NCBI GenBank assembly: GCA_963727715.1
Contig: CAVSGX010000004.1
Span: 82,582-146,581, forward strand
Direction: 5' to 3'
DNA: 64,000 nt
Source: an uncultured bacterium
GTDB taxonomy: Bacteria > Patescibacteriota > Minisyncoccia > Phycocordibacterales > DATDWN01
Part shown: positions 1 through 2,495 of the stretch, piece after piece
Position numbering within the stretch: position 1 is the stretch's first letter
How the letters are laid out: every line of letters begins with the position of its first letter
Notes under the pieces: generated by a model
What the model saw: only the letters and a program-made list of their open reading frames with translations
Database searches by the model: none
What the model was told of the DNA's origin: nothing
Program-made: the position numbers and the translations under genes

Positions 1-2495
1 GTGGGTCACCCCTTCACCTTCACGGCAGATGCGAATACTCTCCTACCGCTTGTGAGACTTCATCAAGGAGCCCGACTTCAGTCGGATTGGTGATCTTGCG
101 AAGAACCACCGAACAACTTTTTGCCACGTCTGTCGCGATCCTGCGAGAATGCTTGAACTTCTTACCCTTCACACCTTGGTAATTATTAACGTCAAATGGT
201 GCGTGGTTTAGTTTTACTAACACGCAGGCTCAGAAACGAAAGAACAAACACTCCACTTGGAGTGGTCGGCGGCCGGAAGGATATCGAACCTCCAACCTTC
301 TGCGTCAAAGCAGGCGCGCCACGATTGCGCCACGCCCCGACATTTTCAACAATAACCCCTGTGAATGGGTGGCGAACCCGGCAGGTTTACGAACCTGCGA
401 CCTCCGCCATGCAAGTGCGACGCTCTCCCGGCTGAGCTACGGTCTCACCAACTGGCGAGGCAAGGACCAACACTGCAACTTTTGCGACAGCAGGGATATC
501 TGTGGACTCCCTACCTTCACTCGGCCAGTTGGATTCGTTCAACTTTCCTCATGACTCAAACAAAAATTTTTCCTCGATGAAGTCTGCAAGCCCTCAGTTT
601 CGGTACATATTTAGCCCCGATTATCTGCGGCGCGAAATTTCTCGATCTGAGTGAGCTGTTACGCTATCTTTAAATGATGGCTGCTTCTAAGCCTACATCC
701 TCATTGTCGGAGAAATTTCACCACCTTAAGCGCACTTAATATCGATTTAGGGACCTTAAATAGAGATCTAGGCTGTTTCCCTTTTGTCCAATGGAGCTTA
801 GCCCCCACAGACTAACTGCCGCGATATAATCTTTGCGTATTCGGAGTTTGATAGGTCTCGTGATCTTTCGCCCTGTCCGGACCTTCCAGTGCTCTACCCC
901 GCAAGGGACATGCGACGCTAACCCAAAAGTTATTTCGGAGAGAACCAGCTATTACCAGATTCGATTAGCTTTTCACTCCTTACCACACGTCATCCGAATG
1001 TTTTGCACGGCTAACCGGTTCGGGCCTCCCCTCGATCTTTCGCCGAGCTTCACCCTGCGCATGGCAAGCTCATCTGGCTTCGGGTCTATAGCAAACAACA
1101 ACGCCCTATTCAGACTCGGTTTCCCTATGGCTCCATCCGGTCAAGGACTTAGCCAAGCTGCGCACATGAACTCGTTGGCTCATTCTTCAATAGGCACGCC
1201 ATGACGGACCGCACATTGTGCACAATTTATATTCTCTGTAGTGAAGGTGGAGCCGAAGCTCCACCTAGTACAAAGAGAACATCCAAAGATATTCTTATAC
1301 AAGTTTTACGTTTTGGCCAAACTATCCCAGTTTGGTCAAAACTGAACTTGATCCGGAACACCATTGTGACCTTGTGGCCCTATTGGTTTTCTAGTTCTCT
1401 CTACTACAGAAAATACAAATTACTTTGAAATATTTTTGTTCTGAATAATGGCGACGAGCCGAAGCTTCCGCTGAAACTTCCTCTCATCTCTGGGACAAAC
1501 TCTCGTCAACCCGTCAGTTGACAAAGTCACTGTGATGAAGGCCATCTCGCTCGCAACATCGACGCCTATCAGGCATTGCCTCTCGGCTCCACTGCGATTG
1601 AGTTATAGACCTCCACCCAAATGAACGCTTGTCCATCCCATTATTCAAAACAAAAATATTTCGCACACTGTGCGACCCGCTCCGACTCCTTGTAAGCATA
1701 TGGTTTCAGGTTTATTTCAATGTCCTTTCGGACTGCTTTTCACCTTTCCCTCACGGTACTAGTTCACTATCGATCTCCAAACATATTTAGCCTTACCGGT
1801 TAGTACCGGCAGATTCCCCCGAGCTATTCGTGTCTCGAGGTACTCAAGAACAGAAACAAGAAAGATTATTTATTTTCAAATACGGGACTATTACCCTCTG
1901 GGGTGTATCTTTCCAGATACTTCTTTTAACAAATAATTTTGTAACTTTCCTCACAATAAATTGTGACATTTCTGCCTTACAACCCCACGGACTGAATTAG
2001 GTGCCCGAGCTGACCGAAGTCAGCTCGGGCGTTTGTGCGGATTCCAATACCCCACTAAGTATCATGAGTGATGAGTCCCGTTCGATGACGGCTTGTCACA
2101 CACAATGCTCAATGTTTGGTGTAGGCGTTAGGCGCACTAGGTCCGAGTCATCCTATATCTTGAATTTCACCGTTGCAAACCCGACGTCTTTGGTCTGCTC
2201 CTGCTACTTTCCTCAATAGGAGTTTTCTCTCACCTAATTCAATCCATGGTTTGGGCTTCTGCGTTTTCGCTCGCCGCTACTAACGCAATGACTTGTTGTT
2301 TTCTTTTCCTCCAGGTACTGAAATGTTTTACTTCCCTGGGTGAGCTCCGTACATAATTTGCACGGTTCTGGCTCGAAGCCGAAGGTTTCCCTATTCAGAC
2401 ATCTCCGGATCAAAGGTTGCTAGGCACCTCCCCGAAGCGTATCGCCGCCATGCCGCGTCTTTCATCGCTGTTTGGAGTCAAGGCATCCACCATAT
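1..2495 (-). rRNA. rrl: 23S rRNA gene, partial (the window start cuts off the 3' part). It contains large insertions relative to E. coli 23S, at about 1140-1620 (helix-25 region) and about 1935-2248 (near nt 240-290).
   Basis: Reverse complement of 2440-2495 matches the 23S 5' end (GGTGGATGCCTTG...GCGATGAAAGACG). Further conserved blocks: 2280-2330 (AGTAGCGGCGAGCGAAA), 1700 (AACCTGAAACC), 930-960 (rc of GAGAACCAGCTATCTCC) and 650-700 (rc of AAGCAGCCATCATTTAAAGAnAGCGTAACAGCTCAC). The inserted stretches are AT-rich and contain UUCG-capped perfect hairpins. Confidence 0.85.

Follow-up and report, generated by a model that had tools for sequence, protein, structure and literature searches.

How can a bacterium assemble a large ribosomal subunit from a 23S rRNA gene in which about half of the readable sequence is extra, and what is a tRNA gene doing inside it? 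These questions are raised by a 64,000-nt stretch of contig CAVSGX010000004.1 from an uncultured bacterium (assembly GCA_963727715.1, positions 82,582 to 146,581; hereafter the window), whose minus strand carries, at the very beginning of the window, the 5' part of a 23S rRNA gene. The best explanation, to which as a whole we assign a probability of about 0.6, is that this is a single-copy-type 23S gene, unlinked from 16S, of a Parcubacteria bacterium (Patescibacteria, or Candidate Phyla Radiation, CPR), in which the tips of three hairpins are extended by sequences of the intervening sequence (IVS) type. The extension of helix 45 (H45) would serve as an internal spacer with a nested tRNA gene, and its excision by RNase III and RNase P would leave the 23S rRNA in fragments.

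Three insertions at hairpin tips

Comparison of the window with about 40 relatives and E. coli maps three insertions in the 23S gene, each of which lengthens the tip of an existing hairpin (Table 1). The insert of the window is the largest at every one of the three sites, and about half of the 2,513 gene bases within the window are insertion. Insertion A, at a site where the window has 301 nt more than E. coli, occupies a hairpin between helices 14 and 16 (H14 and H16) that is absent from E. coli and that we take to be H15 in the standard numbering. Insertions B and C extend the apices of helix 25 (H25) and H45, both of them canonical IVS locations; the site of A is non-canonical.

The ends of all three elements pair with each other, as is typical of IVSs. 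Insertion A is closed by a stem of 19 bp (1985-2003 with 2231-2249), the two arms of insertion B by stems of 25 bp (arm 1, 1427-1662, 96% complementary) and 19 bp (arm 2, 1224-1421), and insertion C by a basal stem of 15 bp (571-585 with 55-69), with a complementarity of 89-96% across the four stems. The z-scores of the folds against shuffled controls are -7.35 for A, -12.95 for the H25 insertion and -3.74 for the H45 insertion.

The original prediction, made from the sequence of this stretch, had described two insertions, one of ~480 nt at 1140-1620 in H25 and another of ~310 nt at 1935-2248. Both exist, with boundaries redrawn to 1210-1675 (~466 nt) and 1986-2248 (~262 nt), and the two perfect UUCG-capped hairpins reported within them are indeed there, at 1247-1266 inside arm 2 of B and at 2003-2030 inside A. 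The third insertion, of ~510 nt in H45, had been overlooked, and segment 256-450, then assigned to domain III, turns out to lie inside it, in domain II (window 55-585). In relatives without this insertion, H45 is a short UUCG-capped hairpin of ~20-30 nt.

A tRNA-Ala gene nested in helix 45

The H45 insertion is built of modules that are co-oriented with the 23S gene, namely, from 5' to 3', a stem-loop (448-532), a tRNA-Ala (370-446), a tRNA-like element (262-339) and a small hairpin (264-234). Two segments with tRNA signatures had been noticed previously and were thought not to fold into complete cloverleaves. The signatures are real, and for one segment the judgment on folding has to be reversed: 370-446 forms a full cloverleaf that is called by ARAGORN as tRNA-Ala(UGC) and scores 44.7 bits with the Rfam tRNA model, against a gathering threshold of 29, with E=3e-6 over the window as a whole. 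It has the G3:U70 pair, the anticodon loop CUUGCAU and an encoded CCA, and in the D arm and variable loop it hardly differs from E. coli alaV. The other segment is degenerate; it stays below the gathering score at 27 bits, is not called by ARAGORN, and combines a tRNA-Ala-like anticodon arm and a 3' ACCA with a 6-nt loop, an 8-nt T loop and an unpaired acceptor end. The hairpin that follows the tRNA modules may have remained from a tRNA gene cassette that was captured, or it may be a real attenuation or processing signal.

The significance of these modules emerges from two sister-species contigs, L095 (JGI, 69.8 kb) and L099 (JGI 3300045394 and related samples, 17.6 kb), which were found by a protein search with the MS-channel gene located upstream of the 23S gene and whose 23S cores are 86-99% and 84-95% identical to that of the window, respectively. 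The H45 basal stem is common to all three species: 15 of 15 pairs form in each of them, and three pairs have changed on both sides. The homologous H45 insertion of L099 contains a tRNA-Ala(UGC) of 68.9 bits with no non-canonical pair, a 7-nt T loop, fully paired stems, G3:U70, A73 and CCA; it is preceded by a degenerate tRNA-like element (CAU anticodon, 27.3 bits) and followed by the same hairpin motif (13219-13250). The tRNA-Ala sequences of the window and L099 are 85% identical, approximately the divergence of the rRNA core, and differ by a compensatory change in the T stem (G51:C63 to A:U). The remainder of the insert is unalignable, and at the position of the 448-532 module both L099 and L095 have a stem-loop of different sequence. 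A conserved tRNA island amid a fast-evolving insert indicates that selection acts on the tRNA module. In L095, the H45 insertion has kept the stem and the U-rich motif, with only a relic of the tRNA ('...CCGCCUCCUCCACCA').

Several observations weigh against a functional nested tRNA and its processing. In the window copy, A4.G69 and A31.G39 are mismatched, the T loop has 8 nt, and G73 stands in place of the A73 found in L099; the cloverleaf of this copy (-20.0 kcal/mol) lies 8 kcal/mol above the minimum free energy fold (-28.2 kcal/mol); on these grounds it may be decaying, and may be on a path that L095 has already completed. No tRNA is detected in the L095 H45 insertion even at E<=10, so at least one sister lineage can do without the nested gene, and a further tRNA-Ala(UGC) gene may be present elsewhere. 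The nested tRNA is present in only two genomes, those of the window organism and L099, with no convincing tRNA in the 23S genes of the other ~40 relatives. A scan of JGI metagenomes for a 23S H44 flank followed after 140-170 nt by a tRNA-Ala D arm returned 11 loci, none with a 23S gene. No RNase III signature motif occurs in the six-frame translation of the window, where rnc alone was sought, which is uninformative for the genome as a whole. That the somewhat degraded copy of the window still decodes is doubtful.

Two kinds of candidate were discarded in these searches. The 11 loci of the JGI scan are chance matches beside ordinary tRNA-Ala genes, and an 89-nt 'tRNA-Ile(AAU)' that ARAGORN places across the 5' end of the 23S gene of one relative (L073) looks spurious.

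The alternative that survives best accepts the insertions as excised IVSs and regards the tRNA modules as passengers, that is, a captured cassette with its terminator, of which a redundant and decaying copy persists without any role in decoding or processing. The several defects of the window copy and its degenerate partner agree with this alternative, as do the mere relic in L095 and the terminator-like hairpin directly after the tRNAs, which is expected of a captured gene. It has difficulty with the flawless tRNA of L099, which keeps the anticodon loop, G3:U70, A73 and CCA, with the 85% identity of what is the sole alignable island of the insert, and with the compensatory change in the T stem; moreover, RNase P would still cut a tRNA shape that does not decode. 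We consider passenger status unlikely, and favor a nested tRNA gene within an internal spacer.

Table 1. Features of the 23S rRNA locus in the window
Feature	Position	Strand	Description
23S rRNA gene, 5' part	1-2513	-	E. coli nt 1 to ~1215 plus three insertions; runs off the window start
Insertion A, hairpin between H14 and H16 (Rfam model ~274-300)	1986-2248	-	~262 nt; relatives have 52-190 nt extra relative to E. coli
Insertion B, H25	1210-1675	-	~466 nt, Y-shaped; 0-136 nt in relatives
Insertion C, H45 (domain II)	55-585	-	531 nt including basal stem, ~510 nt extra; 0-223 nt in relatives
Stem-loop module CCAACUGGCCGAG...CUCGCCAGUUGG	448-532	-	Directly 5' of tRNA-Ala; from folds and alignment
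tRNA-Ala(UGC)	370-446	-	ARAGORN; Rfam tRNA, 44.7 bits
Degenerate tRNA-like element	262-339	-	Rfam tRNA, 27 bits
Small terminator-like hairpin CACUCCAAGUGGAGUG with U-rich tail UUGUUCUUUCGUUU	234-264	-	Just 3' of the tRNA modules; from a scan for terminator-like hairpins
Promoter-like site TTGACA-16-TATACT	2906-2933	-	11/12 consensus matches; the 23S 5' end lies ~390 nt downstream
Terminator-like hairpin CCGCTTAAAAAGCGG with a T run after it	2809-2823	-	Downstream of the promoter-like site, ahead of the 23S gene

Turnover of insertions among relatives

The three insertions differ in their evolutionary depth. The H45 insertion is common to three species and conserved only in its stem and tRNA island. 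At site A, L095 has only 52 nt, and at H25 it has ~10 nt between the same flanks. In L099, the insert at site A measures 131 nt and that at H25 measures 116 nt, and a further insert of 145 nt is present near E. coli nt 650. All three are copies of one 126-nt AT-rich repeat (11517-11642, 11956-12081 and 12193-12318; the repeat also occurs in L100 and L101), with an 82-nt core that is 98.8% identical between the copies at site A and H25, and this repeat is unrelated to the inserts of the window. The closest genome in GTDB (L003) has an unrelated low-complexity hairpin at site A.

Since L095, L099 and L003 either lack insertions A and H25 or have unrelated sequence in their place, these insertions are not conserved expansion segments, and their absence in L095 together with their replacement in L099 identifies them as fast-turnover elements of the IVS type, for which sporadic presence and non-homology among close relatives are characteristic. 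They are young and species-specific, and most likely consist of palindromic repeat-type DNA that lands in, or grows from, rRNA hairpin loops. The H45 element is older than both, being shared by at least three species. The presence of the L099 repeat at three 23S hairpins, and of motif copies between genes, suggests that IVS-like inserts spread as a repeat family. The motif in question, ACTTGATAAC, is found in intergenic repeats upstream of rplJ and rplL in L099 (7713-7791 and 8296-8374).

No such relationship to other DNA was found for the inserts of the window. BLAST detects no other copies of them in the rest of the window, and a search of a phage collection with the H45 and H25 inserts gave only generic tRNA similarity or no match. 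An antisense open reading frame (ORF) that spans both tRNA-like elements has no match in a protein search. We also considered the inserts as members of a family of intergenic palindromes of the window (see below); this was rejected, as the covariance model of the family (R1) matches its three founders only and nothing in the 23S gene.

A second alternative holds that all three insertions are kept in the mature ribosome as expansion segments, with a tRNA-like domain protruding from H45 on the solvent side. Eukaryotes, Asgard archaea and some bacteria have large rRNA expansions that are retained, and the peripheral location of the insertions at hairpin tips and their very stable folds are compatible with retention. 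A ribosomal role is argued against by the lack of sequence conservation and the variable presence of the inserts among close relatives; a lineage-wide expansion, one of the options listed in the original prediction, is contradicted by the state of the A and H25 sites in L095 and L099. Perfect duplexes of 19-25 bp would be substrates of RNase III, which CPR bacteria keep (rnc; PMC12641178), and a canonical tRNA embedded in the rRNA of L099 would be a substrate of RNase P. Finally, insertions in CPR rRNA are removed from transcripts according to an earlier report, as cited in a survey of CPR rRNA genes (PMC11270868, citing Brown 2015). Retention of the insertions thus seems improbable to us.

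Introns and assembly artefacts

Self-splicing group I or group II introns, after whose removal the 23S exons would be re-ligated, do occur in this gene family, in the 3' half of the 23S genes of relatives (PMC11270868). Within positions 1..3500 of the window, however, no Rfam model of a group I (Intron_gpI) or group II intron matches at E<=1, and the same library recovers group I introns in L007 (96 bits) and L095 (82 and 56 bits). The insertion points are hairpin tips with mutually pairing ends rather than conserved core sites. No ORF in or beside the insertions has a Pfam match at E<=0.1, in agreement with the earlier remark that no intron-encoded ORF is visible, and neither a reverse transcriptase, a LAGLIDADG homing endonuclease nor group II domains were found with Rfam and Pfam. 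We therefore regard introns, of which the group I kind had been among the suggested options, as a very improbable explanation.

An assembly artefact or a decaying 23S pseudogene is scarcely credible. It is true that rRNA regions are difficult to assemble, that many contigs of relatives break at H25 or H45, and that one related contig (L101) looks like the artefactual product of an inverted duplication. But each insertion has a complementary stem that closes it precisely at the hairpin tip, the H45 insertion and its basal stem are also present in assemblies made independently from other samples (L099 and L095, with the tRNA in L099), and the rRNA core is 86-99% identical to that of L095.

Among the options considered, IVS-type elements fit the insertions best. 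The proposal of excised IVSs is upheld in this respect; excision itself, and the resulting fragmentation of the 23S rRNA, we infer.

Proposed processing of the 23S transcript

In the mechanism that we propose, the 23S gene would be transcribed as a whole from its own promoter, and RNase III would then cleave the long, near-perfect basal duplexes of the insertions. The H45 element would act as an internal transcribed spacer that comprises the tRNA-Ala(UGC) gene, its decayed tRNA-like partner and the terminator-like hairpin; the tRNA would be freed by RNase P and 3' processing. Excision of a tRNA from within the 23S rRNA would split the ribosomal RNA in two, and without re-ligation the mature pieces would be held together by the helix stubs. 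Of the enzymes required, RNase III is retained by CPR bacteria (PMC12641178), and RNase P RNA was detected, at lowered score thresholds, in each of the 35 circularised CPR genomes that one study examined (PMC8172020).

A bolder version of this scenario, which we put forward tentatively, is that the tRNA-Ala(UGC) moved from the classical 16S-23S spacer into H45 of the 23S gene and is functional, so that its release necessarily cuts the 23S rRNA by 'tRNA punctuation', while short palindromic repeats proliferate as a family in other 23S hairpin loops.

Comparison with known systems

The closest precedents are the 23S IVSs of Salmonella, Campylobacter, Leptospira and Coxiella, which occupy the same H25 and H45 sites as in the window and, likewise, extend a hairpin by a long closing duplex, occur sporadically among close relatives and lack an intron core (PMC2801512, PMC4990558, PMC8708148). 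These IVSs are excised by RNase III without re-ligation, and in Salmonella, Campylobacter and Coxiella helix stubs keep the pieces of the 23S rRNA together (PMC2801512, PMC4990558, PMC8708148). The elements of the window differ from these in four respects. They are 2-5 times larger than typical ORF-less IVSs; they occupy one site more, located between H14 and H16; a tRNA gene lies in the H45 element, where the known ones carry nothing or an S23p ORF; and for the elements of the window excision is a prediction.

Within the CPR, insertions are present in 82% of 23S genes, and those that are ORF-less and not introns cluster at known RNase III IVS sites (PMC11270868). Such 'uncharacterised' insertions (at sites 23IS2 and 23IS4), for which Tsurumaki et al. 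2024 suggested excision by RNase III, resemble those of the window in phylum, in sites and in the absence of an ORF or intron signature, and long unexplained examples of 500-1,000 bp were noted among them (PMC11270868). The same survey does not mention tRNA and reports no repeat families shared between sites.

The nested tRNA itself recalls two other arrangements. Like the tRNA-Ile and tRNA-Ala genes of the 16S-23S internal transcribed spacer, which are released by RNase P, it is co-oriented and would be co-transcribed with rRNA, and it is the same Ala(UGC) species; unlike them, it lies inside the 23S gene, in H45, and this 23S gene is unlinked from 16S. In ciliate mitochondria, discontinuous large subunit (LSU) rRNA genes are separated by tRNA genes. 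The split LSU rRNA of oyster mitochondria also has a tRNA between its two pieces (PMC2996981), an arrangement in which tRNA processing would define the ends of the rRNA fragments. In contrast to these organellar genes, the window is part of a bacterial chromosome, the rRNA pieces lie next to each other in their normal order, and what separates them is a hairpin-closed extension of H45. By analogy, the H45 element would be a bacterial counterpart of both the rrn spacer tRNAs and the tRNA-punctuated organellar LSU genes.

For the CPR, it is already known that the 23S gene can be unlinked, that IVS sites can hold large inserts without ORFs, and that UUCG hairpins occur. What stands out here is a tRNA-Ala gene nested in an H45 spacer and conserved in a second species, and IVS-like inserts that appear to behave as proliferating repeats. 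No account of a bacterial 23S IVS that contains a tRNA gene was found in the open-access literature, which is no proof of novelty.

The 23S gene, its genomic context and host lineage

The Rfam model LSU_rRNA_bacteria matches the minus strand of the window with 790 bits and sets the 5' end of the gene at ~2513, a small correction to the position near 2495 given in the original prediction, which had recognized the gene itself. The 'full-length' coordinates reported by cmscan (412-2513 over model positions 1-2925) are a forced alignment. A BLAST alignment with E. coli rrlH covers only nt 12-1163, in four blocks with large gaps between them. Window positions 50..1 align to the 23S genes of relatives directly 3' of H45, and the gene therefore extends beyond the window start.

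The genes upstream of the 23S gene are the MS-channel gene, an ORF of 195 aa, rplL and rplJ. Relatives of the MS-channel protein point to Parcubacteria/Paceibacteria, near Zambryskibacteria, and the order MS-channel gene, 23S (and 5S) is found in about 40 of the fetched Parcubacteria loci. As had been supposed, the 23S gene is unlinked from 16S: the Rfam search finds neither small subunit rRNA nor 5S in the 64-kb window (no 16S within 61 kb of the 23S gene), and no 16S lies within 10 kb on either side of the MS-channel gene in the loci of the ~40 relatives. This is ordinary for Patescibacteria. The rRNA genes are unlinked in 27 of 34 circularised CPR genomes (PMC8172020), and unlinking is also described in bioRxiv 10.1101/705046.

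The promoter-like site at 2906-2933, judged by its match to the consensus, is a candidate stand-alone promoter of the 23S gene, and the hairpin at 2809-2823 may act as an attenuator in the leader or mark where a small RNA ends. Immediately upstream of this candidate promoter lies one copy of an intergenic palindromic element of ~178 nt, three copies of which occur in the window (2970-3147, 7895-8074 and 18395-18572, all on the minus strand). They have near-perfect arms of 27-33 nt that differ between copies, with compensatory changes at 23 pairs, and a conserved GC-rich core of ~110 nt; an element of similar shape with a different core is located at 40629-40792. The family has no match in Rfam, and its covariance model finds only the three window copies and nothing significant in the loci of 80 relatives. 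At the place of the palindromic element between the MS-channel and 23S genes, L095 has a toxin-antitoxin pair of the RelB/YoeB type (3267-3796), and this spacer is therefore an insertion hotspot.

Apart from the LSU rRNA, the Rfam search detects two tRNAs in the window. One is the nested tRNA-Ala; the other is a tRNA-Ile(UAU) at 57036-57110 on the minus strand (66 bits; also called by ARAGORN), also seen in L025 (13794-13868), which has no encoded CCA, unlike the two 23S-nested modules, and whose anticodon UAU is a rare way to read AUA. Additional tRNA genes near the 23S genes of relatives were called by ARAGORN in L035 (9459-9536, between 23S and 5S, a tRNA-like gene whose anticodon has 4 nt) and L062 (16463-16537, a tRNA-Cys just downstream of 23S).

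Several contigs of relatives end within the 23S gene, four of them (L003, L012, L018 and L043) near E. coli nt 507-540 and one (L067) just after nt 1163, which suggests that the variable H25 and H45 insertions are points where assemblies break. Logan contigs retrieved by exact protein matches were short and stopped at the 23S 5' end, and a further contig (P0006) did not reach H45. In L101, the MS-channel/23S 5' region is duplicated in inverted orientation (1575-5609) and mirrored near the H25 repeat of the 23S gene, probably a fold-back assembly artefact at a palindromic insert. In a Kaiserbacteria metagenome-assembled genome (MAG; L080, ~12583-19928), the 23S gene stops exactly at H45 and gives way to >7 kb of AT-rich sequence in which ORFs of >=100 aa are very scarce. 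An assembly error could account for this, as could a split gene or a giant insertion.

Implications

Large insertions other than introns are known from CPR 23S genes and still lack an explanation; this locus offers two handles on them. First, a nested tRNA that is conserved between species predicts obligatory fragmentation of the rRNA by the tRNA-processing machinery. It would also provide a selective reason for the persistence of an IVS, since the tRNA would be co-expressed with the most heavily transcribed gene in a genome that no longer has the linked operon. Second, IVS-like inserts may multiply as repeat families that spread to several hairpin loops within a single rRNA gene, a view that is supported by their rapid gain and loss among near relatives. 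In practical terms, the tRNA complements and rRNA lengths of CPR MAGs may be mis-annotated, and it is at these sites that assemblies break.

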